From contig JBEDUK010000010.1 of NCBI GenBank assembly GCA_040414485.1, positions 30,147-94,146 of the forward strand: DNA of 64,000 nucleotides, written 5' to 3'. The DNA is from Actinomycetota bacterium (GTDB taxonomy: Bacteria > Actinomycetota > UBA4738). The position numbers were made by a program, and so were the translations under genes. Below, piece after piece: positions 6,454 through 49,212 of the stretch. Positions within the stretch are counted from its first letter, which is position 1, and every line of letters begins with the position of its first letter. The notes beneath the pieces are model-generated. The model did no database searches. It was given only the letters and a program-made list of their open reading frames with translations, and had not been told where the DNA came from.

Positions 6454-6484
6454 GTCCAAGAGACGAAGAAGGGAACCGACCCGC

Positions 6485-18582: not shown

Positions 18583-18602
18583 CGGCTGCTCGCCCCCTCT
18601 CC

Positions 18603-20377: not shown

Positions 20378-20403
20378 GGCCCGCCCCTTCCTGCCTTCGT
20401 CCC

Positions 20404-21801
20404 TTACGGGAGGATGTCCAAGTACTCCTTGATGTCCCAGTCGCTCACCGTGGAGATGAACCGGATCCATTCGTCCCGCTTGTAGTGCATGAACACGCGG
20501 TACATGTCCCCCGGCATCGCCGACCGCACGACCTCGTCGGCTTCCAGCGCGTCGAGCGCCTCGCCCAGCGTGGTCGGGATCCGTTCGACGGTCTTGCCCT
20601 CGGCGATGGCCTCGTAGATGTTGCGCTCCTCCGGCGGTCCGGGGTCGAGCTTGCGGTCGATGCCGTCGCGCATGACCTTCAGCAGCGCCGCGAACGACAG
20701 ATAGGGGTTCACCGCCGAGTCGACGCTGCGGTACTCGTAGCGGCCGGGCGCGCTGATCCGCAGGGCTGTCGTCCGGTTCTGGAACCCCCAGTCGGCGAAG
20801 ATCGGCGCCCAGAACCCGGCGTCGGCGAACCGGCGGTACGAGTTCACCGTCGGTGCCGTGATGCACGTCAGGGCTCGAAGGTGATCCAGCACGCCGCCGA
20901 TCGCGTACAGACCGACCTGGCCGGGCAGCCGCGGGTTGTCGCCGTCGGGGAGGAACTTGTTCGTGTCGCCCTCCCACAGCGAGATGTTGTGGTGGCACCC
21001 GTTCGCCGACACGCCCATGAACGGCTTCGGCATGAAGCAGGCGAACGCGTTCATCTCGCGACCGACCTGCCGGCAGATCTGGCGGTAGGTGGTCAACCGG
21101 TCCGCGGTGGCTTCGGCCTTGTCGAACATGAAGTTCAGCTCCAACTGGCCGGGCGCGTCCTCGTGGTCCCCCTGGATCATGTCCAGCCCCATCGCCCGGC
21201 CGTACTCCATGACCTTGTGGATGATGGGCTGCAGCTCGGAGAACTGGTCGATGTGGTAGCAGTACGGCTTCGTCTTGCCCTCGACCGACGGCGAGCCGTC
21301 GGGGTTGACCTTCAGCCACATCATCTCGGGCTCGGTGCCGGCCCTCAGGTGCAGGCCGGTCGCGGCCGTGAACTCGTCGTGGATCCGCTTCAGGTTCCCG
21401 CGACAGTCGGAGGTGAGGTAACCCCCACCGTCCTCCTCCTCCTCGCGGCCGCGGAACAGCGTGCAGAACACCCGGGCGGTCTTGCGGTCCCACGGAAGGA
21501 CGCAGAACGTCTCGGGCTCGGGCAGGCCGACCAGCTCACGCGCCTCCGGCCCGTAGCCGATGTACTCGCCGTTGCGGTCGACGAACAGGTTCGCCGTGGA
21601 GCCGTAGACCAGCTGGAACCCCCTGGCGGCGATGTTCTCCCAGTGCGCCGCCGGGATGCCCTTGCCCATGATGCGGCCGGTCACCGACACGAACTGGTAG
21701 TACATGTAGTCGACGCCCTCGGCGTCGATCTGCTTGCGGACCTCCTTGATGGCGTCCGCCCGCCCCTCCTGCGACACGAACCGTTCGAGATCCGACGTCA
21801 C
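20404..21801 (-). CDS. gmaS: glutamine-synthetase family protein, gamma-glutamylmethylamide synthetase (GmaS)-like
   Basis: GS catalytic-domain motifs (beta-grasp N-domain, ...CHHNISLW...). Located directly upstream of mgsABC as in N-methylglutamate-pathway clusters. GTG start with a GGAGGGGGG RBS. Confidence 0.75.
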   Translation of the reverse strand: MTSDLERFVSQEGRADAIKEVRKQIDAEGVDYMYYQFVSVTGRIMGKGIPAAHWENIAARGFQLVYGSTANLFVDRNGEYIGYGPEARELVGLPEPETFCVLPWDRKTARVFCTLFRGREEEEDGGGYLTSDCRGNLKRIHDEFTAATGLHLRAGTEPEMMWLKVNPDGSPSVEGKTKPYCYHIDQFSELQPIIHKVMEYGRAMGLDMIQGDHEDAPGQLELNFMFDKAEATADRLTTYRQICRQVGREMNAFACFMPKPFMGVSANGCHHNISLWEGDTNKFLPDGDNPRLPGQVGLYAIGGVLDHLRALTCITAPTVNSYRRFADAGFWAPIFADWGFQNRTTALRISAPGRYEYRSVDSAVNPYLSFAALLKVMRDGIDRKLDPGPPEERNIYEAIAEGKTVERIPTTLGEALDALEADEVVRSAMPGDMYRVFMHYKRDEWIRFISTVSDWDIKEYLDILP

Positions 21802-21826
21802 CCTCGCCCCCCTCCGACGCGATGTC

Positions 21827-23500
21827 TTAGAACAGCCCCACGATGCGTCCGTCCGCATCGATGTCGACCTTGGTGAACGCCGGATCCCTCCCGAGGCCCG
21901 GCATCCGCTGCATGTCGCCGCACAGCGCGACGACGAATCCGGCACCGGCACTTGGAACGACCCCCCTGACCGGCAGCCGAAATCCCCGTGGGCGGTTCAG
22001 CAGGGTCTGATCGTGCGAGAGTGAGAGGTGGCTCTTCGCCATGCAGACCGGCACCTTGCCGAACCCGAGCGCCTCCATCCGTTCGATGTCCCGCTCCGCC
22101 TGCGGGAGGTAGTCCACGCCGTCGGCGCCGTACACGCGTGTGGCGATCGCCTCGATCTGCTCCTTCACCGGCGTCCCGTCCGGCGTCAAGCGGGCGAAGC
22201 TGTTCGGCTGCTTCACCGCGTCGAGGACCGCCTCGGCGAGCTCGACCGCGCCGTCGCCGCCGCGCGAGAAACCGTCGTTCAGCACGACGCGTTCGGCGCC
22301 GACCTCGGTCGCCAGCTCGTCCACCAGCCGGAGCTCCTCGTCCGTGTCGGTCGGGAAGCGGTTGATCCCGACGACGCACGGGATGCCGTACTGCTTCACG
22401 ATCTCGATGCACGCGGCGAGGTTCTCCGAGCCCCGTTTCACCGCGTCCAGGTCCCCGTTTCCGAGGTCGTTGAACGCCACGCCTCCGTGGGACTTGAGCG
22501 CCCGCACGGTGGCCACCAGCACCGCCGCGCTCGGAGCGAAACCGCCTGCGCGGCAGACGATGTCGCAGAACTTCTGGAACCCGAGGTCGGCGGCGAACCC
22601 GGCCTCGGTCACGACGATGTCCGCGAGCTTCAGCGCCACCCGGTCCTCGATGATCGAGTTGTTCGCGTGCGCGATGTTGCCGAACGGCCCCGCATGGATC
22701 AGCACCGGCTGTCCCTCGAGCGTCTGCACGAGATTCGGCTTGACGGCTTCCTTCATGATGGCGGCCATCGCTCCGGCCACTCGCAGGTCCTCCGCCGTCA
22801 CCGGCGTACCGTCGGCCGTCTCGGCCACCACGATCCGCCCGAGCCGTGCGCGAAGGTCGGCCAGGTCGGATGCCAGCGCCAGCACGGCCATGATCTCCGA
22901 CGCCGCGGTGATCACGAAGTGGTCGTCACGCGGCACCCCGTGCATCTTCCCGCCCAGGCCGTCGGTGACGTTGCGGAGCTGCCGGTCGTTCACATCCAGC
23001 GTGCGCGGCCACGTGATCGACTCCAGCGTGATCCCGAGCGGGTTTCCGTGGAAGATCGATGCGTCCATCGCGGCGGACAGCAGGTTGTGCGCCGCGGTGA
23101 TCGCGTGGAAGTCGCCCGTGAAATGGAGGTTGATCTCCTCCATGGGCACGACCTGCGCGTACCCGCCGCCCGTCCCGCCGCCCTTGATGCCGAACACCGG
23201 GCCCATCGACGGCTCTCGCAGGCAGAGCATCACGTTCGCGCCGAGTTTGCCCAGGCCCTGGGTCAAGCCGACGGACGTCGTTGTCTTGCCCTCGCCGGCC
23301 TTGGTCGGCGTGATGGCCGTGGTGATGACGATCTTGCCGTCGGGGCGGTCGCCCAGGCGTTCCAGCACCCGCGCGGCGTCGACCTTCGCCTTCGACCTGC
23401 CGTAGGGCTCGAGCTCGTCCGGGAGCAGGCCGGCATCGCGGCCGACGTCCTCGATCGGACGCAGGACGGCTTCCTGCGCGATCTCGAGGCCCGACTTCAT
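21827..23500 (-). CDS. fhs: formate--tetrahydrofolate ligase
   Basis: Strong FTHFS signature (PTKAGEGKTTTSVGL, GGGYAQVVPMEEINLHFTGDFHAI, HAGPFGNIAHG-like). Confidence 0.9.
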   Translation of the reverse strand: MKSGLEIAQEAVLRPIEDVGRDAGLLPDELEPYGRSKAKVDAARVLERLGDRPDGKIVITTAITPTKAGEGKTTTSVGLTQGLGKLGANVMLCLREPSMGPVFGIKGGGTGGGYAQVVPMEEINLHFTGDFHAITAAHNLLSAAMDASIFHGNPLGITLESITWPRTLDVNDRQLRNVTDGLGGKMHGVPRDDHFVITAASEIMAVLALASDLADLRARLGRIVVAETADGTPVTAEDLRVAGAMAAIMKEAVKPNLVQTLEGQPVLIHAGPFGNIAHANNSIIEDRVALKLADIVVTEAGFAADLGFQKFCDIVCRAGGFAPSAAVLVATVRALKSHGGVAFNDLGNGDLDAVKRGSENLAACIEIVKQYGIPCVVGINRFPTDTDEELRLVDELATEVGAERVVLNDGFSRGGDGAVELAEAVLDAVKQPNSFARLTPDGTPVKEQIEAIATRVYGADGVDYLPQAERDIERMEALGFGKVPVCMAKSHLSLSHDQTLLNRPRGFRLPVRGVVPSAGAGFVVALCGDMQRMPGLGRDPAFTKVDIDADGRIVGLF

Positions 23501-23602
23501 GCCACCGCCGGCGTGGGTCCCATGGAGGCGACAGACTACTCCGGCGGCCGGTGCGACGGACGAGTCGCGGCACGTCGGGCCGCCACAACTTCGAACGCCC
23601 CG

Positions 23603-23686
23603 ATGTGTGGGAAGTGGACAGGTCTCGCTCGCCAACCTGCGGGCTGAGGCGCGCGGCGCGCCGGAGGCATGTGTTCGAAGTGGACA
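23603..23686. promoter_or_regulatory. two copies of an 18-bp motif ATGTGTnnGAAGTGGACA in the divergent fhs / soxD intergenic region (candidate operator sites)
   Basis: Copy 1 at 23603-23620 (atgtgtgggaagtggaca). Copy 2 at 23669-23686 (atgtgttcgaagtggaca). 66 bp apart, inside the 328-bp divergent promoter region. Confidence 0.3.
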
Positions 23687-23828
23687 CGAGCGTCCAATGG
23701 AGACGGGTCCCTTCGCACCCGGCGCCCGGCGTGCAGGCGCCCGGGCGCGGCGGTAAGGTCGGCCCTGCGAGCGGCGGGCTCGCCACGTCGGGGAGCGAGG
23801 ACGAAGGGGCGCGGGAGGGCCCATCCCG

Positions 23829-24098
23829 ATGACGTTCCAGATCCGGTGTCCGAACTGCGGGCTGCGCGACGCCGAGGAGTTCGCCTACGGAGGCGAATCG
23901 ACCACCCGCCCTGGACCCGACGGCAGCGGACAGGACCTCGCCCGCTACGTGTACTTCCGCGAGAACCTCGACGGCTGGCAGACCGAATGGTGGTTCCATC
24001 GCGACGGCTGCCAGAGGTGGTTCGTTGCCGAACGGCACACCATGACGAACGAGATCCGCGCCACCTCCTGGCCGCCCGCGCGCGCGGAGACCCGATGA
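23829..24098 (+). CDS. soxD: sarcosine oxidase delta subunit family protein (SoxD / MgdB-like)
   Basis: MTFQIRCPNCGLRDAEEFAYGGE... is the canonical SoxD N-terminus. Its stop overlaps the next start (ATGA). Confidence 0.85.
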   Translation: MTFQIRCPNCGLRDAEEFAYGGESTTRPGPDGSGQDLARYVYFRENLDGWQTEWWFHRDGCQRWFVAERHTMTNEIRATSWPPARAETR

Positions 24099-27001
24099 CG
24101 GCGGAACGGACGGCGTCGCCGGGGCCGCACGAGACGATCGACCGCGGTGCGGGCGTCACCTTCATGCTCGACGGCAGGCGAATGCGGGGATACGCCGGCG
24201 ACACGGTCGGATCGGCCATGGCCGCGGCCGGCGTGACGATCACCGGCCGGTCGTTCAAGTACCACCGGCCCCGCGGCCTGATGTGCATGGCTGGCGCCTG
24301 CCCCAACTGCCTGGTCCGGATCGACGGCGTGCCGAACGTCCGCGCCTGCTCCGAACTGCTCCGAGACGGGATGAAGGTCGAGCGCCAGAACGGCCGGCCG
24401 AACGTCGAGCGGGACGTGACCGGGATCGTCGATCGCTTCTCCTTCGCCCTCCCCGCGGGCTTCTACTACAAGGTCTTCCACCGGCCGAAGTGGGCATGGC
24501 CGCGGGTGGAGCCGATGATCCGGCGCCTCTCGGGGCTCGGCGTCGTTCCCGACGAGCCGGACCACGGCGAGAAGGAACGGGTGAGCCTCCATCCGGACGT
24601 GCTGGTGGTGGGCGCCGGGGCGGCGGGACTCTGCGCCGCGGTCGAGGCGGCCCGCGCCGGAGCGACGACCGTCCTTCTGGAGGAGCGGGGCGAGATCGGC
24701 GGCGCGCTGCTGTATTCGACCGAGTGGGCGGCCGATCCGTTCGCCACAGCCGGCGCCGGCGGGGCGGCATCGGAGAGCCTTCCCGGACCCGCGCTGGCCA
24801 CGCGCCTCTCGGCGTCCGCGGACGTTGCCGGCGTCCGAATCCTGGGCGGGACGCCGGCGTTCGGCGTGTTCGACGGTCCGCTGATCGCCGCGGCTTCGGA
24901 GAACGCGCTCTACCGGATCCGCCCGGCCCGCACGATCTTCGCCACGGGCGCCGTCGAACAACCGGCGGTCTTTCCGGACAACGACCTGCCCGGCGTGATC
25001 CTCGGCGGCGCGGCCGACCGCCTCCTCAACCGCTTCGGCATCCTCCCGGGAAGGCGGGTCGTGGTGCTGGCATCGGGCCCTGCGGCCTATCGGACGGCGT
25101 CCTCGCTCGCGGCCGCCGGCGCGCAGGTCACCGTGGTCGATCCCGACCCGGGTGCCGCGGCATCGAAGGTCGCCGGCGTGACGGTGAAGGCCGGCAGCAC
25201 CATCCGCCGCGCGATCGGCAGGCGCCACGTCACCGCCGTCGAGGTCGGCCACCCGGACGAGTCCGGTTCGAAGCTCGACTGCGACCTCGTGGTCGTCGCG
25301 GGCCACGCGTCGCCCACCACCAACCTGCTGGCGCAGGCCGGGGCGACGATCGAATGGGACCAGGACGCCGGCGCGTTCCTCGCAACCGGCCTCCCCGCCG
25401 GCGTCTTCGCGGCCGGCGAGGTCACCTGCGTCCGCGACCTGGAATCGGCGATCGTGCAGGGACGGCTTGCCGGCCTCGAGGCCGCGCGTTCGCTCGGTCT
25501 GGGAGATGCACGGACCGAGGCGGCCGTCGCAGCCCTTCGCGCACAGGCTCCGTCGGGACCCCAGGAGGCGACGCTTCCGCCGGCGCGCATCCCGGCGGAC
25601 GGCAAGCAGTTCGCCTGCGTCTGCATGGACGTGACCTACAAGGAGCTGCGCTTCGCCGTGAAGGAGGGGTTCGATTCGATCGAGCTCCTGAAGCGCTACA
25701 CCACGCTGTCGATGGGGCCGTGTCAGGGCAAGTCGTGCCTGTCGGCGTCGATCCGTCTGTGCGCGCTGGCAACCCACCGAAGCATCGAGGAGACCGGTGC
25801 GCCGACGGCGCGTCCGCCGTGGGTGGGCGTCCCCATGTCCGTCCTCGCCGGCGAGGAGCTCGTTCCCCGCCGGGAGAGCGCCATGCAGGACCTTCACGCC
25901 GACCTCGGGGCCACGTTCATGTGGGCGGGCGACTGGCGCCGCCCCCATCACTACATCGAGCCGGCGGCCGAGGCCCGCACCGTGCACCAATCGGTCGGCG
26001 TGATCGACGTCAGCACGCTCGGAAAGGTGCGGGTGAAGGGTCCGGACGCGGCGGCGTTCCTGGAGCGTCTCTATCCGAACATGTACGCCGACCTTGCGGT
26101 GGGGCGCGTCCGCTACGGAGTCATGTTGAACGACTCGGGCGTCATCCTGGACGACGGCACGATCGTCAGGCTGGCTGACGATGAGTACTTCGTCACGACG
26201 ACCACGGGCAACGCGGCGTCGATGATCCGGTGGATGGAGTGGTGGCTGGCCGTGTGGCAGATGGACGTGCTCATGGCGAACGTCAGCTCCCAGTTCGCGG
26301 CGATCAACGTCACCGGTCCGCGGTCGCGCGAGGTCATGTCGCGGCTGACCGAGCTGGATGTCTCGGCGGAGGGCATGCCGTACCTTCGGGCCGCGCAGGC
26401 CGAGGTCGCCGGCGTGCCCGCGCTGATCCTCCGGATCGGGTTCACCGGCGAGCTCGGGTTCGAGCTCCACGTGCCGGCGGCGTACGGGCAGTACCTCTGG
26501 CAGGAGATCCTCGGCGCCGGCCAGGCCGCGGGGATCCCGGTGCAGCCGTTCGGCCTGGAGGCGCAGCGGATCCTTCGGCTCGAGAAGCAGCACATCCTCG
26601 TGGGGCAGGACACCGACGCGCTGTCGGACCCCTACGGCGTGGGCATGCCGTGGATCGTGAAGATGGCGAAGCCGGACTTCCTCGGACGGCGGGCCCTGGC
26701 CGAGATGGCCAACGGGGACGCGGCGCCGTCGCCCGCCGACCGCCTGGTCGGGTGGGCGGCGCCGGGAACCGTCGTGCCGCCGGAGGGCGCCGGGATCGTG
26801 CAGGGAGGCACCTGGGTCGGGCGGGTCACCTCGGCTCGCCGCAGCGACGCCGTCGGGAGCGTGATCGGGATGGGCTGGGTGCCGGCGTCGCTCGCCGAGG
26901 AGAACCGGGAGATCTCGATCCATTTCGGCGGGCAGACGCTCGCCGCGAACGTTCGCCTGAAGCCCTTCTACGACCCCGAGGGCGCGAGGCTCCGGTCATG
27001 A
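24095..27001 (+). CDS. soxA: sarcosine oxidase alpha subunit family protein (SoxA / MgdC-like)
   Basis: 969 aa. N-terminal 2Fe-2S-like and NAD/FAD-binding regions (DVLVVGAGAAGLCAAVEAARAG) and a C-terminal GcvT-like folate domain (GFTGELGFELH). Confidence 0.9.
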   Translation: MTAERTASPGPHETIDRGAGVTFMLDGRRMRGYAGDTVGSAMAAAGVTITGRSFKYHRPRGLMCMAGACPNCLVRIDGVPNVRACSELLRDGMKVERQNGRPNVERDVTGIVDRFSFALPAGFYYKVFHRPKWAWPRVEPMIRRLSGLGVVPDEPDHGEKERVSLHPDVLVVGAGAAGLCAAVEAARAGATTVLLEERGEIGGALLYSTEWAADPFATAGAGGAASESLPGPALATRLSASADVAGVRILGGTPAFGVFDGPLIAAASENALYRIRPARTIFATGAVEQPAVFPDNDLPGVILGGAADRLLNRFGILPGRRVVVLASGPAAYRTASSLAAAGAQVTVVDPDPGAAASKVAGVTVKAGSTIRRAIGRRHVTAVEVGHPDESGSKLDCDLVVVAGHASPTTNLLAQAGATIEWDQDAGAFLATGLPAGVFAAGEVTCVRDLESAIVQGRLAGLEAARSLGLGDARTEAAVAALRAQAPSGPQEATLPPARIPADGKQFACVCMDVTYKELRFAVKEGFDSIELLKRYTTLSMGPCQGKSCLSASIRLCALATHRSIEETGAPTARPPWVGVPMSVLAGEELVPRRESAMQDLHADLGATFMWAGDWRRPHHYIEPAAEARTVHQSVGVIDVSTLGKVRVKGPDAAAFLERLYPNMYADLAVGRVRYGVMLNDSGVILDDGTIVRLADDEYFVTTTTGNAASMIRWMEWWLAVWQMDVLMANVSSQFAAINVTGPRSREVMSRLTELDVSAEGMPYLRAAQAEVAGVPALILRIGFTGELGFELHVPAAYGQYLWQEILGAGQAAGIPVQPFGLEAQRILRLEKQHILVGQDTDALSDPYGVGMPWIVKMAKPDFLGRRALAEMANGDAAPSPADRLVGWAAPGTVVPPEGAGIVQGGTWVGRVTSARRSDAVGSVIGMGWVPASLAEENREISIHFGGQTLAANVRLKPFYDPEGARLRS

Positions 27002-27714
27002 GCGACGCCGCCGCAGTGGCGACCTTCGAGCCGGTCATGCGTTCGCCGCTGCACCGTGCGCACGAGCGGCTCGGGGCCACGTTCGGGCGGGACGGCGAGT
27101 GGGAGTACCCGGCGGCCTACGCGGGCGAAACCGGCGAGGCCGGCCTCCGGGCCGTCGCCGAGGGGGTCGGCGTGGCCGACGTCACCGCCCGGGGAAAGGT
27201 GGATCTCCGCGGCGCGATCGGCGACCTGTTCGCGCGGATCGCCAGGACCAGCGAGGGGTGGGAGCCGGGGACCATCGTCCCCATCGAACCGGCGCCGTCC
27301 GAGGAGCATCCGGGACTGATCGCCCCGATCTCCGACCGCTGGGCGATCCTGTTCTGCCCGCCGGCATCGCTCGACACACGGATGGAGGAACTGGACCGGC
27401 CGGCCGGCGGCGCCTCGGCCATGGTCACCGAGATCTCGTCGCAGTACGTGGGCGTCGCCCTGACCGGACCGAGGACGTTCGATCTGCTGGAGCGCCTCAC
27501 CGCATTCGACCTGCGCGAACTGGAGCCTGACGCGTGCGTCGCCACGAGAGCGCTGGAACTGACCGCGATCATGCTGCGGCGCGGGCCGGTCGTCGAACTG
27601 TGGGTCAGCGCGTCCTCGGCGCGGTACGCGTGGGAGACGGTTCTGCACGCGGGGGCGCGCCTGGGCGCGGCGCCGGTCGGCCGGGACGCGCTGTCGACGC
27701 TGGGGTGGTGGTGA
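26998..27714 (+). CDS. soxG: sarcosine oxidase gamma subunit family protein (SoxG / MgdD-like)
   Basis: Start ATGA-overlaps the soxA stop. Size (238 aa) and position are consistent with SoxG. Confidence 0.75.
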   Translation: MSDAAAVATFEPVMRSPLHRAHERLGATFGRDGEWEYPAAYAGETGEAGLRAVAEGVGVADVTARGKVDLRGAIGDLFARIARTSEGWEPGTIVPIEPAPSEEHPGLIAPISDRWAILFCPPASLDTRMEELDRPAGGASAMVTEISSQYVGVALTGPRTFDLLERLTAFDLRELEPDACVATRALELTAIMLRRGPVVELWVSASSARYAWETVLHAGARLGAAPVGRDALSTLGWW

Positions 27715-27719
27715 GCGGG

Positions 27720-28943
27720 ATGCCCGCACCGATCGGACCCCGCTACTTCAAGCCCTGGAAGATGTGGCGCCGGCACGACCTGAAGCCGTCGTACGACTGC
27801 GTGATCGTGGGCGGCGGCGTCCACGGCCTGGGCATCGCCTACGAGATGGCGAAGCGCGGCTTCAAGAACGTCGCGGTCCTGGACCAGTCGTACATCGGCG
27901 CGGGCGGCAGCGGGCGGAACACCACGATCATCCGCGCGAACTACCGGACACCCGAGGGCGTTGCGTTCTACCGCGAGTCGCTTCGGCTCTACAAGCACCT
28001 GGGTCAGGAGCTCGACTACAACCTGCTGCTGTCCGAACAGGGCCACCTGACCCTCGCTCACAACGAACGCGGCGTCATCACGATGCACGAGCGCGCGGAG
28101 GTCAACAAGACGCTCGGCGTGGACAGCCGCGTGATCTACGCGGAGGAGATCCGCGGGCTCTGCTCGTGGCTGGACCTCTCGGACAAGCCGCCGTTCCCGA
28201 TCATGGCGGCGCTGTTCCACCCGCCGGGCGCGGTGCTCCGCCATGACGCCGTCGTGTGGGCGTACGCGCGGGCGGCCGACCGGCTCGGCGTGGAGATCCA
28301 TCCGTACACCCAGGTGACGGGCATTCACGTCGACGGCGGCAAGGTCACCGGCGTCCGCACCCCGCAGGGCGACATCGCCACCCCGATGGTGATCGGCGCG
28401 GTGGCCGGCTGGTCGAGCGAACTGGCCAGGATGGCGGGGGTCGAACTGCCGATCACCACGCATGTGCTGCAGGCGTTCGTCACCGAACCCCTGAAGCCGT
28501 TCCTGCACACGATCATCGTGTCGGGAACCCTGCACGTGTACATCTCGCAGACCGACCGGGGCGAGGTGCTGATCGGCTCCGAGATCGAGCCGTACACGAC
28601 CTACAACCAGGGCTCGACGCTCACCTTCCTGGAGGCGACCACCGCGCATTCGCTCGACCTCATCCCGGCGCTGGGCCGCGTGAAGGTGATGCGGTCGTGG
28701 GGCGGCCTGTGCGACATGACGCCGGACTACTCACCGATCATGGGAGTCACATCCGTCGAAGGGTTCCTGCTCGACTGCGGCTGGGGCACGTACGGCTTCA
28801 AGGCAGCCCCGATCAGCGCGGTGACCATGGCCGAACTGGCCGTGACTGGGAAGGTCCCCGACCTGATCGCGCCGTTCGAACTGGAGCGCTTCTGGCGCCG
28901 GCAGCCGGTGAGCGAGATCGCCGCCGCCGCCGTCTCGCACTGA
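27720..28943 (+). CDS. soxB: sarcosine oxidase beta subunit family protein (SoxB / MgdA-like), FAD-dependent
   Basis: CVIVGGGVHGLGIAYEMAKRG (FAD binding) and the covalent-FMN region typical of SoxB. Confidence 0.9.
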   Translation: MPAPIGPRYFKPWKMWRRHDLKPSYDCVIVGGGVHGLGIAYEMAKRGFKNVAVLDQSYIGAGGSGRNTTIIRANYRTPEGVAFYRESLRLYKHLGQELDYNLLLSEQGHLTLAHNERGVITMHERAEVNKTLGVDSRVIYAEEIRGLCSWLDLSDKPPFPIMAALFHPPGAVLRHDAVVWAYARAADRLGVEIHPYTQVTGIHVDGGKVTGVRTPQGDIATPMVIGAVAGWSSELARMAGVELPITTHVLQAFVTEPLKPFLHTIIVSGTLHVYISQTDRGEVLIGSEIEPYTTYNQGSTLTFLEATTAHSLDLIPALGRVKVMRSWGGLCDMTPDYSPIMGVTSVEGFLLDCGWGTYGFKAAPISAVTMAELAVTGKVPDLIAPFELERFWRRQPVSEIAAAAVSH

Positions 28944-29108
28944 CGTCGTCAGGTTCGGCCCGTCACCGGATCGCGACGCAAGCGGCTCCTTCCCTGATCG
29001 CATGCCGTCGAATCGAGCGCGGCGTGGGCGCCGAGCCGGCGAGGACCGCGGTCCGTGCCTCCTCGTGGATAGACTGCGAGTGCGCCACCTGTGAGGGGAG
29101 GTGAGTCC

Positions 29109-31064
29109 ATGGCGAAGCAGCCGTTGGTTCGATTGACCCATCCCTGGGTCCGCGACACGAAGGGGTCCGAACTGCGCCCCGCGACGTGGGACCAGGCGCT
29201 CGACCGCGCAGCGGCCGGATTGAGCGCGGCCACCGAGCGGAACGGAGGCGACGGGGTCGGGATCTTCTCCTGCTCCAAGGCCACCAACGAGATGAACTTC
29301 GTCGCGCAGAAGTTCGCGCGTCAGGTGCTGGGTTCGAACAACATCGACAGCTGCAACCGCACCTGACACGCTCCCTCGGTGGTCGGTCTGGCCACCGCGT
29401 TCGGAGCCGGAGGCGGCACCAGTTCATACGAGGAGGTCGAGAACACCGACCTCATCATCCTGTGGGGGTCGAACGCGCGCGAGGCGCATCCGATCTTCTT
29501 CCACCATGTCCTGAAGGGGATCCGGAACGGCGCGCGGCTGTTCGTGGTGGATCCGCGACGCACCGTCAGCGCCGAATGGGCCGACCTGTGGCTGGGCATC
29601 GACGTCGGGACCGACATCGCGCTGTCGAACGCGATCGCCCGCGAGATAATCGTCAATCAGCTTTACCATCAGCCGTTCGTCGAGCTCGCCACGACCGGGT
29701 TCGACGAATACCGCGACTCGGTCATGGACTGGACGCTCGAGCGCGGCGCACAGGAGACCGGCGTGCCGGCGGACGTGATCCGGGAGGTCGCCCACGCCTA
29801 CGCGAAGGCCGACCGCGCCATGATCTGCTGGACGCTCGGGATCACCGAGCACCACAACGCGGTCGACAACGTCCTGGCGCTGATCAACCTGGGACTGCTG
29901 ACCGGACACGTCGGCACCTACGGCAGCGGGCTCAATCCGCTGCGCGGTCAGAACAACGTCCAGGGCGGCGGCGACATGGGCGCCATCCCGAACAAGCTCC
30001 CGGGGTTCCAGGACATCGAAACCGACGCCGACGCCCGCGCGCGGTTCGAGGAAGCCTGGGGAACGCCGATCGTTCCGAAGTCCGGCTGGCACCTGAGCCA
30101 GATGTTCGAGGCCATGGACCGCGGCGACCTCACAGCGCTGTACGTGATCGGCGAGAATCCGGCCACGTCAGAGGCGGATGCGCAGCACGCGCGGCACCTG
30201 CTGGAGACCCGAGACACGCTGATCGTCCAGGACATCTTCATGACGCAGACGGCGCAACTGGCCGACGTGGTGCTGCCGGCGGCGAACAGCTCGTTCGAAT
30301 CCGACGGCACGGTGACGAACAGCGAGCGCCGCACCCAACGCGTGCGCAAGGCGCTCGATCCGCCGGGCGAGGCGCGGGACGACATCTGGATCCTCGCCCA
30401 GCTCGCGAAGCGGCTGGGCTTCGACTGGGGCGACCCCACCGCCGAAGAGGCCTGGGACGAATGCCGTTCGCTCTCCCCCATGCACCGCGGCATGTCGTGG
30501 GCGCGCCTGGAGGAGTTGGGCGGAATCCAGTGGCCCTGCCCCGACGAGTCGCACCCGGGAACGCAGTTCCTCCACGCCCGGCTGTGGGCGGAGGATCCGG
30601 CCGAACAGGGCCCGAAGGCGCCGCTCAGCGTCGTGATCCACGATCCGCCCGTCGACCTGTTGAGCGAGGAGTTTCCAATCCGCCTCACGACGGGCCGACG
30701 GCTGGATTCGTACAACACGGGCGTGCAGAGCGGCATGTACTCCTCGCCGCTGCGGCGCGACGAGGCGATCGAGGTGTCGCCCGAGGACGCGGCGCGCCTC
30801 GGTCTGAGCGAAGGCGAATGCGTGCTGGTGTCGTCGCGCCGGGCGGCGGTCGAGGCGCCGGTCCACGTCGCGGAGACCCTCCGGCCCGGACTGGCGTTCA
30901 TGACGCTGCACTTTCCGGACCAGGTGGACACGAACGCGCTGACGATCGACGCCACCGACCCGAAGTCCGGCACGGCGGAGTTCAAGGCGACGGCGGTGCG
31001 GATCGACAAGCTGCCGTCGAAGGACGCAGAGCTGATCTCACAGGGCGAGGGATCGCACCGCTGA
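29109..31064 (+). CDS. fdhA: formate dehydrogenase catalytic (molybdopterin) subunit, FdhF-like, with an in-frame TGA at 29364-29366 read as selenocysteine; lacks the N-terminal Fe-S domains
   Basis: The two track ORFs 29091..29366 and 29379..31064 are in the same frame and separated only by TGA. The translation ...NNIDSCNRT-U-HAPSVVGL aligns with E. coli FdhF ...NNVDCCARV-U-HGPSVAGL. Downstream it matches NPLRGQNNVQGGGDMGAIP. ATG at 29109 with a GGGGAGG RBS. Confidence 0.8.
29367..29405 (+). other. putative bacterial SECIS element (hairpin CGGUGG-UCGGUCUGG-CCACCG)
   Basis: The stem begins 10 nt after the UGA. The apical loop contains GGUCUG, as in the E. coli fdhF SECIS loop. Confidence 0.45.
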
Positions 31065-31074: not shown

Positions 31075-32961
31075 GTGGACCTCCATCTGACGGATGCGAC
31101 CGCGACCGACGAGGAGCGGGCCGCGGTCGACGCCGTGCTCGGGCCGCCCGCCACCGGCTGGGTGGGGGGCGACCGCCTGCACGGCGACACGCACCGCGTC
31201 GCGCGTGGCGGCAGGGCCGCCCGCGACCAGCGGCACCTCCTGCTGCCCGTGCTGCACTCGGTGCAGGGCCGCGTGGGCTGGGTCAGCCCGGGCGCGCTGA
31301 ACTACGTCTCGCAGCGGTTGAGCGTGCCTCCCGCGGAGGCCTATGGCGTCGCGTCGTTTTACGCGATGTTCTCGACCAAGCCCCGAGCACGGGCGGTTCT
31401 GCACGCGTGCGACGACATCGCCTGCCGGATCAACGGGGCCGAGCAGGTCATCGCACGGCTCCGCGACGCGTTCGGTCCGGAAGGCGAGCCGGACGCGACG
31501 GGCAACCGGACCTGGCTGCGGAGCCCCTGCCTCGGCGTGTGCGAGGCCGCCCCGGCCGTCCTGTTGCAGCAAGCCTCCGATCGACCGTTCGAACTGACCA
31601 TCGCGCCGGCGTCGAACGGCAACCTCGAGCCGTTCGTGTCGACCGGACCGGGCACATGGACGGGGGTCGGCTCGGACGCTTCGGCCGCGCCGCAGACGCA
31701 GGACGCGACCGCCCGAGTGTCGCTTCGACTGCTCCGGCGGATCGGGCTCGTCGATCCGACGTCGCTGGACTCGTACCGGGCTCACGGCGGGTACGAAGCG
31801 CTTCGCGAGGCGGTCCGGCTCGGCCCAGGCGGCGTGATCCGCGAGGTCAAGGACGCGAAGCTGCTCGGCCGGGGCGGCGCCGCGTTTCCCACCGGGGTGA
31901 AGTGGGAGGCCGTCGCCCAGCAACCGGTCAGGCCGCATTACCTCGTCTGCAACGCCGACGAATCGGAGCCCGGTACGTTCAAGGACCGTGTCGTGATGGA
32001 GAACGATCCGTTCGCCCTGATCGAGGCGATGACCATCGCCGGCTACGCGACCGGCTCGGAGCACGGATACATCTACATCCGCGGCGAGTACCCGCAGGCG
32101 CACGCGTTCCTGGCCTCCGCGATCGAGCAGGCCCGCCGGCACGGGTTCCTGGGCGACGACGTGATGGGCCAGGGATTCGCATTCGACATCGAACTGCGGC
32201 GCGGCGCCGGCGCCTACATCTGCGGCGAGGAGACGGCGCTGTTCAACTCGATCGAGGGCAAGCGAGGCGAGCCCAGGAACAAGCCGCCGTTCCCGGTCAC
32301 GCATGGCCTGTTCGGCAAACCGACCGGGATCAACAACGTGGAAACGCTGATCAACGTGCTCGAGATCATGCGGATCGGCGGCCCCGCATATGCGGCCATC
32401 GGCACCCCGGACTCGACCGGGCCCCGGCTCTTCTGTCTGTCCGGCTGCGTCGCACGCCCGGGGCTGTACGAGGTGGAATTCGGTGCGACCCTGGGCGACG
32501 TGCTGTCGCTGGCGGGCGGGATCCGGGACGGCAAGCGGCTGCAGGCGATCCTGTTGGGCGGCGCCGCCGGCGCCTTCGTCGGCCCGGACGCGATGGACCT
32601 CCCGCTCACGTTCGAGGCGACGCGCGCGGCGGGCGTCACGCTCGGGTCGGGCGTCGTCATGGCGTTCGACGAAACGGTCAACCTGCCTGACATTCTCGTC
32701 CGAGTCGCGCAGTTCTTCCGGGACGAATCGTGCGGCCAGTGCGTCCCGTGCCGGGTGGGAACGGTTCGCCAGGAGGAGCTCCTGGCCAGACTGGCGGCCG
32801 GCGCGCCCCGTGGCTCGCGCGACGACGAGATCGCCCTTCTGAACGACATCGCCCAGGCCATGCGGGACGCGTCCATCTGCGGGCTCGGGCAGACCGCCTC
32901 CGGCGCGATCCAATCGGCGATCCGGGCGTTCGATCTCTTCGCCGTGGAGGCAGGGTCATGA
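31075..32961 (+). CDS. fused NuoE-like (2Fe-2S) / NuoF-like (FMN, NAD, 4Fe-4S) diaphorase subunit of NAD-dependent formate dehydrogenase (FdsG-FdsB fusion)
   Basis: The N-terminal part is thioredoxin-like 2Fe-2S (CDDIACRINGA ... CLGVCEAAP). The C-terminal part is NuoF-like (GRGGAAFPTGVKWE, YLVCNADESEPGTF, ESCGQCVPCRVG). GTG start with a GGAGG RBS. Confidence 0.85.
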   Translation: MDLHLTDATATDEERAAVDAVLGPPATGWVGGDRLHGDTHRVARGGRAARDQRHLLLPVLHSVQGRVGWVSPGALNYVSQRLSVPPAEAYGVASFYAMFSTKPRARAVLHACDDIACRINGAEQVIARLRDAFGPEGEPDATGNRTWLRSPCLGVCEAAPAVLLQQASDRPFELTIAPASNGNLEPFVSTGPGTWTGVGSDASAAPQTQDATARVSLRLLRRIGLVDPTSLDSYRAHGGYEALREAVRLGPGGVIREVKDAKLLGRGGAAFPTGVKWEAVAQQPVRPHYLVCNADESEPGTFKDRVVMENDPFALIEAMTIAGYATGSEHGYIYIRGEYPQAHAFLASAIEQARRHGFLGDDVMGQGFAFDIELRRGAGAYICGEETALFNSIEGKRGEPRNKPPFPVTHGLFGKPTGINNVETLINVLEIMRIGGPAYAAIGTPDSTGPRLFCLSGCVARPGLYEVEFGATLGDVLSLAGGIRDGKRLQAILLGGAAGAFVGPDAMDLPLTFEATRAAGVTLGSGVVMAFDETVNLPDILVRVAQFFRDESCGQCVPCRVGTVRQEELLARLAAGAPRGSRDDEIALLNDIAQAMRDASICGLGQTASGAIQSAIRAFDLFAVEAGS

Positions 32962-33947
32962 GCGCGGTCCCGCTGGCTCCGCCGATGCGGCTGATCGACC
33001 TCACGATCGACGGCGAGGCCGTCCGGGTCCCCGAGGGCGCGACGCTGCTGCAGGCGTGCCGCGCGCAGGGCATCGACACGCCGACGCTCTGCTACCTGGA
33101 GAGCCTCACGCCGGTGAACGTGTGCCGCGTCTGCGTCGTGGAGGTCGAGGGCTCGCGAACGCTCGTGCCCGCCTGTTCGCGGAAAGCCGAGCCCGGCATG
33201 GTCGTGCACACCGACAGCGAGCGCGTGCGCCTGTCCAGGCGCGTCGTCCTTGAGTTCCTCGGATCCTCGGTCGATCTCTCACTGGCCGGCCCGACCGTGC
33301 CGGACGGCGATCTGGCCAGGTACGCGGCCGCGTACGGCGCCGAACCGTCCCGGTACGGGACGCCGAACGGCCACGCGGAACACCCGGACCGCGACCACGC
33401 CGGGCCGGGCCACCATTACGCGCCGCGTGCCGTCGAAACGGCGACGGTCGCCCAGCCGGTCAAGGTCGACAACGACCTGTACGTGCGCGACTACGCCAAG
33501 TGCGTGCTCTGCTACAAGTGCGTGGAGGCATGCGGGACCGACGCGCAGAACACCTTCGCCATCGCGGTCGCGGGCCGCGGCTTCGACGCGCGGATCTCCA
33601 CCGAGTACGCCGTGTCCCTGCCCGACAGCGCTTGCGTCTACTGCGGGAACTGCATCGGCGTGTGTCCGACCGGCGCGCTGATGTTCAAGTCCGAACACGA
33701 CATGCGCGCGGACGGCACGTGGGATGAGGACGAACAGACCGTCACCACCACGATCTGCCCGTACTGCGGGGTCGGGTGCAACCTCGAGGTCCACGTGCAG
33801 AACAACTCGATCGTGAAGGTCACGAGCCCCATGGACCACAGCGTGACCAGCGGGCACCTCTGCATCAAGGGCCGCTTCGGCTTCCAGTACGTGCAGAGCC
33901 GCCGCGGCCCGGACGCGGTCGCCTCCGAGGACGGCGGCTCAACCTAG
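32958..33947 (+). CDS. formate dehydrogenase alpha-subunit N-terminal Fe-S module (2Fe-2S + 4Fe-4S ferredoxin domains + MopB N-terminal 4Fe-4S domain), encoded as a separate gene
   Basis: NuoG-like N-terminus (CYLESLTPVNVCRVCVVEV). Two 4Fe-4S ferredoxin motifs (CVLCYKCVEAC, CVYCGNCIGVCP). It then ends with CPYCGVGCNLEVHVQNNSIVKVTSP...CIKGRFGFQY, which aligns with FdhF residues ~8-60. Its start ATGA-overlaps the previous gene. Confidence 0.8.
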   Translation: MSAVPLAPPMRLIDLTIDGEAVRVPEGATLLQACRAQGIDTPTLCYLESLTPVNVCRVCVVEVEGSRTLVPACSRKAEPGMVVHTDSERVRLSRRVVLEFLGSSVDLSLAGPTVPDGDLARYAAAYGAEPSRYGTPNGHAEHPDRDHAGPGHHYAPRAVETATVAQPVKVDNDLYVRDYAKCVLCYKCVEACGTDAQNTFAIAVAGRGFDARISTEYAVSLPDSACVYCGNCIGVCPTGALMFKSEHDMRADGTWDEDEQTVTTTICPYCGVGCNLEVHVQNNSIVKVTSPMDHSVTSGHLCIKGRFGFQYVQSRRGPDAVASEDGGST

Positions 33948-36465: not shown

Positions 36466-37497
36466 ATGAGAGGGCAAGGGAGCGCGATGGACGGCGTCTG
36501 GTTCCTGGTGGCGGCCGCGGTGAGCCTGGCCACGAGCTGGGTGCTGGTCACACGACTCGAACGCATCGGCGAGGCGGCCGGCCTCGCCGAAGGCCTCCTC
36601 GGGCTCCTCGCGGCGCTGGCGGCGGACGTCCCCGAGATCACCTCGGCCTTCACCGCGCTCGCTCACCACGAGCACGCCGTGGGCGCCGGCGTGGTCATCG
36701 GATCGAACGTCTTCAACCTCGCCGCCCTCATCGGCCTCGGGGCGGTGGTCGCCGGGCTGGTCCGGCTGCATCGGCGCGTGGTCGTGCTCGGTGGGCTCTT
36801 CGCCATGCCGATCGCGATCGTGTGCCTCCTGGCGGTGGTCGGGGTCCTCGGAGCCGTCCCGGCGTTCATCCTCTCGGCCGTCATGCTCGCGGTGTACGCG
36901 ATGGTCCTGGCCGAGGGTCGAGGACGGCCGGGGCGCCTGGGGCGGCTCGCCGTGCCCGGTTGGCTGGACGGCTCGATCCGTACGGCGGTGGCGGAGGAGG
37001 AGCAGGAGCTGCTCGAAGCGATCCATCCCAGGCGTGGGACGGTCGTGGACGGAGTGGTCGCGGCGGTCGCCCTGCTGGTCGTGCTGGCGGCGAGCGTCGC
37101 CATGGAGCGGTCCGCGTCGGCGTTCGGCGCGGCGCACGGATGGTCCGAGATCGTGATCGGCGGCCTCGTCCTCGCGGCCGCCACGAGCCTGCCGAACGCG
37201 GTGGCGGGCGTCTACCTGGCGTCGAAGGGGCGCGGCGCGGCGGCGCTCAGCACGACCTTGAACAGCAACAGCATCAACGTGACGATCGGGCTCCTCCTGC
37301 CCGCCATGTTCCTCGGGCTGGGTGCCACGTCGACCGCCGCGGCGCTCACGACGGCCTGGTACGTGGGCTTGACGATCCTGGTGCTCGCGGCCGCCTACGT
37401 GCGGCGCGGGATCGGGCGTCCGATCGGCCTGGTGATCGTCGGCACCTACGCGGCCTTCGTCGCGGTGCTGCTCGGCGCCGGCCCCTCAGTGAGGTGA
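36466..37497 (+). CDS. CaCA-family sodium/calcium exchanger membrane protein
   Basis: Two alpha-repeat regions (GSNVFNLAALIG ... SLPNAVAGVYLASKG) and about 10 TM helices. True start possibly at 36487. Confidence 0.75.
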   Translation: MRGQGSAMDGVWFLVAAAVSLATSWVLVTRLERIGEAAGLAEGLLGLLAALAADVPEITSAFTALAHHEHAVGAGVVIGSNVFNLAALIGLGAVVAGLVRLHRRVVVLGGLFAMPIAIVCLLAVVGVLGAVPAFILSAVMLAVYAMVLAEGRGRPGRLGRLAVPGWLDGSIRTAVAEEEQELLEAIHPRRGTVVDGVVAAVALLVVLAASVAMERSASAFGAAHGWSEIVIGGLVLAAATSLPNAVAGVYLASKGRGAAALSTTLNSNSINVTIGLLLPAMFLGLGATSTAAALTTAWYVGLTILVLAAAYVRRGIGRPIGLVIVGTYAAFVAVLLGAGPSVR

Positions 37498-37944
37498 TTC
37501 GCCGGACGCGACGGCTTTGTCGGCGTCAGCGGTCAGCGCATCCTGCAGGACGTCCCACGCGAGCACCGCGCACTTGATCCGAACCGGGTACTTGACCACG
37601 CCCTTCAGCGCGGCCAGGTCACCCATGGATTCCTCGTCCGGTTCGGCGGCGCCCTCCATGAACGAGCGGAACTCCGACGCCAGGCCGAGCGCCCGGTCCA
37701 CGGGCTGGCCGGCCACCGCTTCGGTCATCATGGACGCGCTCGCCTGACTGATCGAACATCCGGAACCCTCGAACGCGACCCCTTCCAGCACGCCGTCCCG
37801 CACCTGCGCGTGGACCGTGATCTCGTCCCCGCACAGCGGGTTGTTCTTCGAACAGCTGAACTCGGCCCCCGGCAGGTCTCGCTTGTTCCGGGGGTTCTTG
37901 TAGTGGTCGAGGATGACCTCCTTGTACAGCTCCTCAAGCGCCAA
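37486..37944 (-). CDS. sufU: SUF system Fe-S scaffold protein SufU (NifU/IscU-like)
   Basis: NPLCGDEITVH ... GSGCSISQASASMM is the SufU signature. Confidence 0.85.
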   Translation of the reverse strand: MALEELYKEVILDHYKNPRNKRDLPGAEFSCSKNNPLCGDEITVHAQVRDGVLEGVAFEGSGCSISQASASMMTEAVAGQPVDRALGLASEFRSFMEGAAEPDEESMGDLAALKGVVKYPVRIKCAVLAWDVLQDALTADADKAVASGESPH

Positions 37945-39190
37945 AGAACGCCTCCGCCTTCATGAGCGACGCCACCAATGCATCCACCTCGTCGTGGGAG
38001 TTATACACGTAGAACGACGCACGGGCGGTCGCCGGAACCCCCAAGAGGCGCATCAGCGGCTGCGCGCAGTGGTGCCCGGCGCGGATGCAGACGCCGTCGG
38101 TGTCCAGGACCTGCGCCAGGTCGTGCGGATGGATGTCGCGGAACCAGAACGACACCGCGCCGCCGCGCTTCTCCACGTCGTGCGGGCCGAAAACGACCGC
38201 GCCGATCTCCTCCAGGCGCCGGGTCGCGTACGCGGTGATCTCCTTTTCGTGCTGCCGGACGTTCTCCATCCCCAGGTCCGTCAGGTAGCGCACCGCGGTC
38301 GCCAGGCCGACCTCCTCGGCGATGTTCATCGTTCCGGCTTCGAACTTCCAGGGGATCTCCTTGAACGTCGACTCCTCGAGCTCGACCCGCATGATCATCT
38401 CGCCGCCGCCCAGGAACGGGTCCATCTCCTCCAGGCGCTCGCGCTTGCCGTAGAGCCCACCGGAGGCGGTCGGTCCGAGCATCTTGTGGCCGCTGATCGT
38501 GAGGAAGTCGACGTCCAGCGCCGTGACGTCGACCGGCACGTGCGGCACCATCTGCGCGCCGTCGACCAGGATGGCCGCGCCCGCGGCGTGGGCGGCGTCG
38601 GCCAGCGTGCGGATCGGCGGCAGCGTGCCCAATACGTTCGACATGCCCGTGACGCACACCAAGCGGGTCCGTTCGTTGATCAGACCGTCCTCCAAATCCG
38701 TGAGGTCGATCGACCCGTCCTCGGCAAGGGGGATGAACCGGAGCTTCGCTCCGGTGGCCTGCGCCGCGAACTGCCACGGCACCAGGTTCGAATGGTGCTC
38801 GAGGACCGACAGCAGGATCTCGTCGCCCTCGCGGAGGATCTTCCGCGCGAAGCCGTACGAGACCAGGTTCGTCGACTCGGTCGTGCCGCGGGTGAAGATC
38901 ACCGTCGCGGGGTCCGGCGCGCCGATGAACCGCGCGAGCGTCGCCCGGGCGTCCTCGTACATGGCCGTGGCCTCTTCGGCCAGTGTGTACACGCCGCGGT
39001 GGATGTTCGCGTTGTGCCGCTCGTAGAAGTCGTTCACCGCGTCGAGCACCTGGCGCGGCTTCTGACTCGTGGCGGATGAGTCCAGGTACACGAGCGGCAC
39101 GGTCCCATCCGGCCCGACGCGCCGTTCCAGGATCGGGAAGTCCTTCCGGATCCGTTCGATGTCCAGGCTTCGGCTCACCGTCACGCTCAC
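37934..39190 (-). CDS. sufS: cysteine desulfurase SufS
   Basis: PLP-binding SGHKMLGPTASGGLYG and the active-site RAGHHCAQPL. Confidence 0.9.
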   Translation of the reverse strand: MSVTVSRSLDIERIRKDFPILERRVGPDGTVPLVYLDSSATSQKPRQVLDAVNDFYERHNANIHRGVYTLAEEATAMYEDARATLARFIGAPDPATVIFTRGTTESTNLVSYGFARKILREGDEILLSVLEHHSNLVPWQFAAQATGAKLRFIPLAEDGSIDLTDLEDGLINERTRLVCVTGMSNVLGTLPPIRTLADAAHAAGAAILVDGAQMVPHVPVDVTALDVDFLTISGHKMLGPTASGGLYGKRERLEEMDPFLGGGEMIMRVELEESTFKEIPWKFEAGTMNIAEEVGLATAVRYLTDLGMENVRQHEKEITAYATRRLEEIGAVVFGPHDVEKRGGAVSFWFRDIHPHDLAQVLDTDGVCIRAGHHCAQPLMRLLGVPATARASFYVYNSHDEVDALVASLMKAEAFFGA

Positions 39191-39202
39191 GGCCCCATCC
39201 TC

Positions 39203-40009
39203 CTACTGCTGCGGCTCCGCCTCCACGCCCAGTTCGGCCCGGAGACCCTCGTAGCCCTTCTGCTCCAGCTCGTGTGCCAGTTCCGGCCCGCCCGAGAGCA
39301 CGATCCGGCCGCTCATCATCACGTGGATGTGGTCCGGGGTGATGTAGTTCAGGATCCGCTGGTAGTGCGTGATGATCAGCACGCCCAGATCGGGCCCGAT
39401 CAGCCGGTCCACGCCCTGCGCCACGGCCTTGAGCGAGTCGATGTCCAGCCCGCTGTCGGTCTCGTCCAGGATCGCGATCGACGGCTCGAGCACCGCCAGT
39501 TGCAGGACCTCGTTCTTCTTCTTCTCCCCGCCGGAGAACCCCTGGTTGACGTAGCGGCGGACCATCTCGTCGTCCACGCCGAGCAGGTCCATCTTCTCCT
39601 TCATGAGCTTGCGGAACGCGAGCGCGCTGGTGGTCTCGCCCTTCACGGCGTTGTACGCCGTCCGGAGGAAGTTCACCACCGACACGCCCGGGATCTCGGT
39701 CGGGTACTGGAAGGCGAGGAACAGCCCCAGTTGCGCGCGCTTGTCCGGCGCCAGCGAGGTGATGTCCTCGCCACGGAACCGGATCTCGCCGGCCGTGACC
39801 TTGTAGGTGGGGCGGCCCATGAGGACGTTCGCCAGGGTGGACTTCCCCGACCCGTTCGGCCCCATCAGCGCGTGAACCTGCCCCTGTGTGATCGTCAGGT
39901 CGATCCCCTTCAGGATCTCCTTGCCCTCCACTTCCGCGTGGAGGCCGCGGATCTCCAGGGTCGCCGCACCCTCCTTCGTCTCGCGCATCGTCGCTTCGGT
40001 CGTCGCCAT
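39203..40009 (-). CDS. sufC: Fe-S cluster assembly ATPase SufC
   Basis: Walker A GPNGSGKST, ABC signature, and typical SufC length. Confidence 0.9.
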   Translation of the reverse strand: MATTEATMRETKEGAATLEIRGLHAEVEGKEILKGIDLTITQGQVHALMGPNGSGKSTLANVLMGRPTYKVTAGEIRFRGEDITSLAPDKRAQLGLFLAFQYPTEIPGVSVVNFLRTAYNAVKGETTSALAFRKLMKEKMDLLGVDDEMVRRYVNQGFSGGEKKKNEVLQLAVLEPSIAILDETDSGLDIDSLKAVAQGVDRLIGPDLGVLIITHYQRILNYITPDHIHVMMSGRIVLSGGPELAHELEQKGYEGLRAELGVEAEPQQ

Positions 40010-40018
40010 GTCTGTCGT

Positions 40019-40345
40019 CTACTCCTTGCCCATCTCGATCAGGATCGCGTCGCCTTCGACCTTCACCGGGAAGACCGGCACCGGCTTGGTGGCCGGCAGC
40101 GCCCTCGGCCGGCCCGTCTCCAGGTCGAACATCGAGCCGTGCTTCGGGCACTCGATCGTGCCGTCCTCTGCGTCCACCTCGCCGTCCGAGAGGTGGTAGT
40201 GCTCGTGGGAGCAGATGTCGCCAACCGCCCGGAACACGCCGTCGCCCAGGTTGACCAGCGCGACCTCGCTGCCGTCGACCAGCACGTGACGGGCCTCGCC
40301 CTCGGGGACGTCGCCCACCCGCGCCACCTCAACCAGGTCACCCAT
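40019..40345 (-). CDS. Rieske [2Fe-2S] ferredoxin (suf-associated)
   Basis: CSHEHYHL ... CPKHGSMFD is the Rieske CxH...CxxH motif. It lies between sufD and sufC. Confidence 0.8.
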   Translation of the reverse strand: MGDLVEVARVGDVPEGEARHVLVDGSEVALVNLGDGVFRAVGDICSHEHYHLSDGEVDAEDGTIECPKHGSMFDLETGRPRALPATKPVPVFPVKVEGDAILIEMGKE

Positions 40346-49162: not shown

Positions 49163-49212
49163 CAGGTCTCGGGGACCTCGGGCTATCCTACCCAGGACCC
49201 GGACTCAGGCAG

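Follow-up and report, generated by a model that had tools for sequence, protein, structure and literature searches.

The window studied here, a 64-kb stretch of DNA from an uncultured, high-GC lineage of Actinomycetota, carries a gene for the catalytic subunit of a formate dehydrogenase (FDH) in which codon 86 is an in-frame UGA. We conclude that UGA-86 encodes selenocysteine (Sec), with a probability of about 0.93. Recoding of UGA as such is textbook biology, found here in this lineage, and gene callers regularly take codons of this kind for stops; what goes beyond the textbook is the near-universal presence of Sec in a clade of FdsABG-type enzymes, and the split and permuted architecture of their subunits. 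The earlier note on this DNA had argued for recoding and not for a pseudogene, a view borne out by a TGA in 160 of 160 related loci, a cysteine homologue, covariation at synonymous sites, and the linkage of sel genes to the orthologue in Chloroflexota-type loci. The gene and its elements, including a putative selenocysteine insertion sequence (SECIS), are the following:

29109..31064, plus strand: catalytic gene, predicted to encode the subunit that holds molybdenum or tungsten bis-pyranopterin guanine dinucleotide (Mo/W-bisPGD) and Sec; 651 residues including Sec86
29097..29101, plus strand: Shine-Dalgarno sequence GGAGG, read from the sequence, 7 nucleotides 5' of the ATG at 29109
29364..29366, plus strand: UGA, the putative selenocysteine codon (codon 86), aligned with U140 of E. 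coli FdhF
29378..29396, plus strand: candidate SECIS apical hairpin, with 5' arm 29378-29384, loop GGUCU 29385-29389 and 3' arm 29390-29396

The open reading frames (ORFs) 29091..29366 and 29379..31064 lie in an identical frame. Translation of 29109-31064 gives 652 codons, of which the sole internal stop is the TGA at 29364-29366, in agreement with the earlier claim of one frame broken only by TGA; the gene's own terminator is also a TGA (31062-31064). The residues around the internal TGA are SCNRT*HAPSVVGL, and its longer flank reads ...NNIDSCNRT*HAPSVVGLATAFG... (the asterisk stands for the TGA). The proposed correspondence to the Sec140 position of FdhF holds as well: pairwise alignment places codon 86 on U140 of the E. 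coli fdhF product, the RefSeq entry of which is annotated "selenocysteine-containing". In a phmmer search of PDB sequences the TGA coincides with the column that holds the catalytic Cys or Sec in FDH structures, with matches to 7qv7_S (E = 9e-146), 7bkb_D, the F420-dependent 9t1s_L, E. coli FDH-H (1aa6_A) and Rhodobacter capsulatus FdsA (6tg9_A). Codon 86 is an in-frame UGA at the position of the catalytic Sec or Cys that ligates Mo or W. Among the ordinary stops of the window, too, TGA is the most frequent: it terminates 20 of the 36 genes, the catalytic gene included. The genetic code is therefore not reassigned; global reassignment of UGA is ruled out.

Conservation of the codon was followed in two sets of relatives: the DNA of the 80 best species-level loci from genomes (69-80% protein identity), and 80 metagenome loci retrieved with a Cys form of the enzyme (P0005) as query. 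The codon is TGA, and in frame, in 80/80 genome loci and 80/80 metagenome loci (160/160; 64-80% protein identity). The genome loci are metagenome-assembled genomes (MAGs) from Actinomycetota (including Thermoleophilia and Gaiellales), Chloroflexota, Dormibacterota, Vicinamibacteria, Gemmatimonadota and others. Across the 80 genome loci the protein is conserved on both sides of the TGA, including the upstream 85 codons. The Cys homologue (P0005/L081) has 646 residues, 72% identity and TGC at the Sec position, where it reads SCNRTCHAPSVVGL; its operon is of the same type as that of the Sec form. Conserved UGA and a Cys homologue at the same residue make up a Sec/Cys pair. The comparison of orthologues for Cys (TGC) or TGA, which had been proposed as a check, has thus yielded TGA in every one of the 160 fetched loci and Cys in one relative. 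The metagenome query was aimed at Cys-type controls, and all 80 loci that it returned have TGA. Even from a Cys query, then, Cys is the rare state at this codon.

Database entries give a different picture, in which the TGA would be a real stop and the locus either a pseudogene or split into an 85-residue peptide and a 561-residue protein. TGA is a normal terminator in the window, and 119 of the 120 best protein homologues are called as proteins of 545-571 residues that start at varying points past the TGA and cover the post-TGA part only. A real stop is nevertheless highly improbable. The codon is always TGA, never TAA or TAG, and is in frame in 160/160 loci; the 85 upstream codons are conserved as protein; the break would coincide with the catalytic residue; and the synonymous-site covariation described below speaks for selection on RNA structure. 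There is, moreover, no conserved restart codon after the TGA: the GTG at 29379 in the window is GTC in 60 of 80 relatives, and the called lengths vary accordingly. The 119 short entries are the work of gene callers that stopped at the Sec codon, and the truncation is systematic. With UGA-86 read as Sec, the annotation is corrected to a 651-residue selenoprotein in place of ORFs of 91 and 561 residues; the same error is found in 119 of the 120 closest database homologues. The names given to these entries (P0001-P0120) are 'predicted molibdopterin-dependent oxidoreductase YjgC' or 'formate dehydrogenase major subunit'.

The hairpin downstream of the UGA was described in the earlier note as CGGTGG paired with CCACCG. 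These arms are present (29377-29382 with 29392-29397), but the stem is two pairs longer inward, which leaves a 5-nucleotide loop, and the outermost pair is not conserved. RNAfold pairs 29378-29384 with 29390-29396 around GGUCU. The stem that is conserved consists of 29379-29384 with 29390-29395; the pair G29378-C29396 is found in the window and in about half of the relatives, and the additional outermost pair, C29377-G29397, in the window only. The element agrees with the bacterial SECIS consensus in having a 5-nucleotide loop that starts with GG, a 7-bp stem, 18 nucleotides from UGA to loop, and an energy of -13.6 kcal/mol (criteria from PMC13188914, Fig. 2 legend).

Changes among the relatives indicate what is being conserved. 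In an ungapped alignment of 81 sequences (A1), with hairpin positions counted from the U of UGA, RNAalifold recovered the same stem independently. Both bases of pair 18-30 are third codon positions, one in a Val codon and the other in an Ala codon. The pair is C-G in 54 and G-C in 14 distinct sequences and is intact in all of them; a neighbour-joining tree of the proteins requires a minimum of 8 flips between the two states. Pair 20-28 takes two forms, U-G (55 sequences) and C-G (13). Synonymous conservation was measured over the whole gene at 57 four-fold sites with an invariant amino acid, the median entropy of which is 1.24 bits. Only two of these fall below 0.3 bits, codon +7 GGT (79/80 T) and codon +8 CTG (80/80 G), and these are the loop codons of the hairpin. 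The Cys homologue has GGC CTC in place of these loop codons, and an Ala-to-Asp change disrupts its stem. The compensatory changes and the synonymous-site conservation are strong indications that the hairpin is under selection at the RNA level. A candidate lower stem, formed by the UGA region with columns 34-39, has no compensatory change and one pair broken in 26 of 68 sequences, and RNAalifold favours another, invariant lower stem over this pairing.

The greater part of the stem consists of first or second positions in codons for invariant residues, as would be expected if the hairpin were a by-product of the conserved peptide HAPSVVGLAT with no function as RNA, and a folding energy no better than that of shuffled sequence fits the same view. 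The informative positions, however, are synonymous. Pair 18-30 covaries perfectly through its 8 or more flips, the third positions of GGT and CTG are the sole near-invariant four-fold sites of the 57, and the synonymous constraints are absent from the Cys homologue. A mere by-product is, on these grounds, extremely unlikely.

Genes for Sec synthesis and insertion are found beside some of the orthologues. Nine Chloroflexota-type loci that keep the TGA and the hairpin also carry a tRNA-SeC(UCA), a reading frame for SelA/SelB and a SelD gene, all at a distance of 4-10 kb on the upstream side of the orthologue. In locus L066 (420-3731, minus strand), one stop-to-stop ORF beside tRNA-SeC contains both a SelB domain and a SelA domain, the latter matching just the first half of its Pfam profile; a fusion, a frameshift or an artefact of assembly could explain this ORF. 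In L065, ARAGORN called a 90-nucleotide tRNA-Gly inside the FDH coding region (10910-10999, plus strand), which is probably a false positive.

Several observations weigh against the reading of UGA-86 as Sec. ARAGORN found no tRNA gene in the 64-kb window, Pfam found no SelA, SelB or SelD domain in the approximately 40 ORFs of the window that were scanned, and Actinomycetota-type loci are without sel genes within 10 kb. The Cys control consists of a single homologue (L081). As for the hairpin, its folding energy is no better than that of shuffles (z = 0.01, for a single sequence in DNA of 69% GC), and its stability alone is therefore no evidence for it; the bulged U17 of the E. coli element is absent. 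Against the Rfam family SECIS_3 (RF01989) the element reaches 17.6 bits, where the gathering score is 63 (E = 0.14 in a permissive, 181-nucleotide search). In the folding and covariance-model checks advised in the earlier note, RNAfold does form the hairpin, at an energy that shuffled sequence equals; SECIS_3 is the top Rfam match and sits on the UGA and the hairpin over its full model length (29361-29419), at a score under the threshold for membership. A scan of the whole window at the gathering threshold returned no SECIS, only a cobalamin riboswitch.

The first of these observations could also be accommodated if UGA-86 were recoded with the help of the hairpin and a SelB-like factor, but to something other than Sec, for example Cys carried on a tRNA(Sec)-like tRNA or the product of near-cognate read-through, in a genome without SelA and SelD. 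Sec machinery was found neither in the window nor in Actinomycetota-type flanks, and Cys is tolerated at the site in the 72%-identical homologue. On the other hand, sel genes are usually unlinked, and each locus was viewed over +/-10 kb only; Chloroflexota-type orthologues with the same UGA and hairpin adjoin a full set of selA, selB, selD and tRNA-Sec(UCA). If the product were Cys, TGC would be the simpler codon, yet TGC is found in 1 of 161 relatives (the 160 loci and the Cys homologue). Recoding to a residue other than Sec is accordingly very unlikely.

Recoding to Sec would proceed as follows. The UGA at codon 86 would be read by Sec-tRNA(Sec), brought by the elongation factor SelB while the factor is tethered to the mRNA hairpin that starts 11-12 nucleotides downstream of the UGA. 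The GGUCU loop places G23 and U24 exactly where the bases that contact SelB lie in the E. coli fdhF SECIS, and SelB contacts here would presumably be alike. In the finished enzyme, Sec would ligate the Mo (or possibly W) of the bis-PGD cofactor and take part in the oxidation of formate to CO2. The first stop for the electrons would be a 4Fe-4S cluster that the product of gene 32958-33947 contributes in trans with its C-terminal domain; from there they would pass along a NuoG-like Fe-S chain to the flavin mononucleotide (FMN) and nicotinamide adenine dinucleotide (NAD+) site of a NuoE-NuoF fusion (31075-32961). The enzyme would be soluble, with NAD+ as the probable acceptor and with the split subunits presumably assembled into one complex. 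The full-length product is predicted to release the tryptic peptide T-U-HAPSVVGLATAFGAGGGTSSYEEVENTDLIILWGSNAR. That Sec is in fact inserted in the source organism is what we infer from the DNA; if so, the organism would carry Sec machinery and need selenium for formate oxidation.

The two genes that follow the catalytic gene define the type of enzyme:

31075..32961, plus strand: fusion of a NuoE-like [2Fe-2S] protein and a NuoF-like protein (FMN, NAD, 4Fe-4S), 628 residues; Pfam 2Fe-2S_thioredx, Complex1_51K, SLBB and NADH_4Fe-4S
32958..33947, plus strand: Fe-S protein like the N-terminus of NuoG, 329 residues; Pfam Fer2_4, Fer4_7 and Molybdop_Fe4S4

The fusion gene has GGAGG ahead of a GTG start and matches NCBIfam nuoF_fam and nuoE_fam; it is the equivalent of FdsG plus FdsB and the predicted module for NAD+ reduction. 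Its stop overlaps the start of the next gene (ATGA), the product of which has a NuoG-like 2Fe-2S/4Fe-4S N-terminus followed by Molybdop_Fe4S4 at the C-terminus, a domain that usually stands in front of the catalytic domain. The catalytic gene has the Pfam domains Molybdopterin and Molydop_binding, as found on its homologues. Its product corresponds to residues 308-931 of R. capsulatus FdsA (6tg9_A) and to about 60-691 of E. coli FdhF, and is without a 4Fe-4S domain; gene 32958..33947 covers FdsA residues 25-304 (6tg9_A). Since FdsA 25-304 and 308-931 are on separate genes, the alpha subunit is split and the gene order is permuted: the C-terminal part of A, the G+B fusion, and then the N-terminal part of A. 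The equivalog model TIGR01591 (672 positions) is divided in the same manner. The catalytic gene matches positions 53-672 with 627.1 bits, below the cut-off of 666.25, and residues 265-314 of the product of gene 32958-33947 match positions 1-50 with 54.7 bits. The model is therefore covered only by both genes together.

By its domains, then, the enzyme is the predicted Mo/Sec part of an FdsABG-like, NAD-linked FDH with an alpha subunit that is divided near FdsA residue 305 and encoded in permuted order. It has the NuoG-like N-terminus, Mop domain, NuoF-like and NuoE-like components of FdsABG, and lacks a single-polypeptide alpha subunit and the order fdsG-B-A. The earlier note had called it a selenocysteine FDH, by comparison with FdhF. 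The UGA at the catalytic residue stands; an assignment to the FdhF/FDH-H type does not, as the alignment starts at FdhF 60-61 and the N-terminal 4Fe-4S cluster that FDH-H has of its own (Cys8, 11, 15, 42) is missing. The gene order is kept in nearly all related loci with enough downstream DNA (L001-L081) and in the Cys form, and the split and permuted architecture is therefore independent of the use of Sec. The sole locus with enough sequence that departs from it is L052, from a Chthonomonadia MAG, in which 5.1 kb downstream of the TGA contain no NuoE, NuoF or NuoG-like genes.

The upstream neighbours of the operon point to a probable source of its substrate:

17179-18825, minus strand: glutamate-synthase-like
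20404-21996, minus strand: glutamine-synthetase-like
21827..~23500, minus strand: formate-tetrahydrofolate ligase (Pfam FTHFS, E = 1e-241), start approximate
23648-27001: SoxA-like
~27000-27714: SoxG-like
27531-28943: SoxB/DAO-like

The module at 17179-28943 suggests an N-methylglutamate or sarcosine oxidation pathway. Since the operon lies beside the formate-tetrahydrofolate ligase gene and this cluster, which resembles sarcosine oxidase or N-methylglutamate dehydrogenase, it probably carries out the final step in the oxidation of methyl groups, with the neighbouring genes probably supplying the formate. In 22 related loci (synteny cluster 4) FTHFS also lies upstream of the FDH orthologue, and FTHFS and SoxA-like genes flank the FDH in about 20 related loci. 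Related loci further have FdhD on the upstream side (46 loci) and MobA on the downstream side (22 loci); neither is adjacent to the operon in the window. Farther away, a large ORF with DUF1989 and the GCV_T aminomethyltransferase folate-binding domain (6401-8833, plus strand) is another folate-linked one-carbon (C1) enzyme. The cobalamin riboswitch (53304-53523, minus strand; Rfam RF00174, 75.9 bits) is directly upstream of genes for a periplasmic binding protein (52204-53244, minus strand) and an ATP-binding cassette (ABC) ATPase, probably a B12 uptake operon. The window also has two separate blocks of SUF Fe-S assembly genes (37486-41804 and 47094-49204, minus strand), with NifU-like, SufS, SufC, SufB/D twice, and FeS_assembly_P; a Rieske [2Fe-2S] gene (40019-40435) lies within them.

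A broader reading is possible, and we offer it tentatively, at rather less than even odds. The locus may belong to a large, undescribed clade of NAD-linked FDHs in mostly aerobic soil phyla (Actinomycetota, Chloroflexota, Dormibacterota, Acidobacteriota and others), almost universally Sec-dependent, in which the alpha subunit is split and cyclically permuted at the gene level, the Sec part is translated first, and the proximal 4Fe-4S cluster is provided in trans. Should this be so, C1 oxidation in soils (of formate derived from methylamine or sarcosine) would have a hidden need for selenium, and hundreds of database entries would be truncated at the Sec codon. A literature search of limited reach returned no specific description of the clade or of the split architecture, which is weak evidence of novelty. 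The 160 sequences provide a comparative set for fdhF-type SECIS elements in high-GC soil bacteria, and the conserved split and permuted FdsABG-like architecture is of possible interest for the enzymology of CO2/formate catalysts.

Three known systems bear comparison. The alpha subunit of FDH is the most widespread bacterial selenoprotein, present in 822 organisms (PMC5029168, Table 3). Among high-GC Gram-positives, mycobacteria have an FDH alpha subunit of the FDH-O/FdoG type with a SECIS-directed UGA; Sec machinery is present in about 40% of mycobacterial genomes, and FDH is predicted to be the sole selenoprotein there (PMC13449736). The mycobacterial protein is an FDH-O/N-type subunit of about 1060 residues with selC-selA-selB nearby (PMC13449736), whereas the FdsA-type fragment encoded in the window has 651 residues, is cytoplasmic, and has no sel gene closer than about 30 kb. 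The second system, E. coli FdhF, shares the UGA at the homologous catalytic residue and a hairpin immediately downstream, and the motifs around the residue are SCNRT-U-HAPSV in the window and CARV-U-HGPSV in FdhF. The two elements have G22 G23 U24 C25 U26 G27 at identical distances from the UGA, and 29 of the first 46 nucleotides are identical; of 5426 complete E. coli genomes, 5419 contain the fdhF SECIS sequence used here, at 100% identity and within fdhF. The window loop is of 5 nucleotides instead of 4, and its stem has no bulged U17. The window protein differs from FdhF in having no N-terminal 4Fe-4S domain, and it belongs to an NAD-linked, NuoEFG-type operon in place of formate-hydrogen lyase. 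The third system, FdsABG of R. capsulatus (6tg9) and Cupriavidus necator, has the same inventory of cofactor domains. There FdsA is one polypeptide, whereas here it is divided between two permuted genes, with FdsG and FdsB fused; and characterised FdsABG enzymes have a Cys ligand where the window enzyme is predicted to have Sec.

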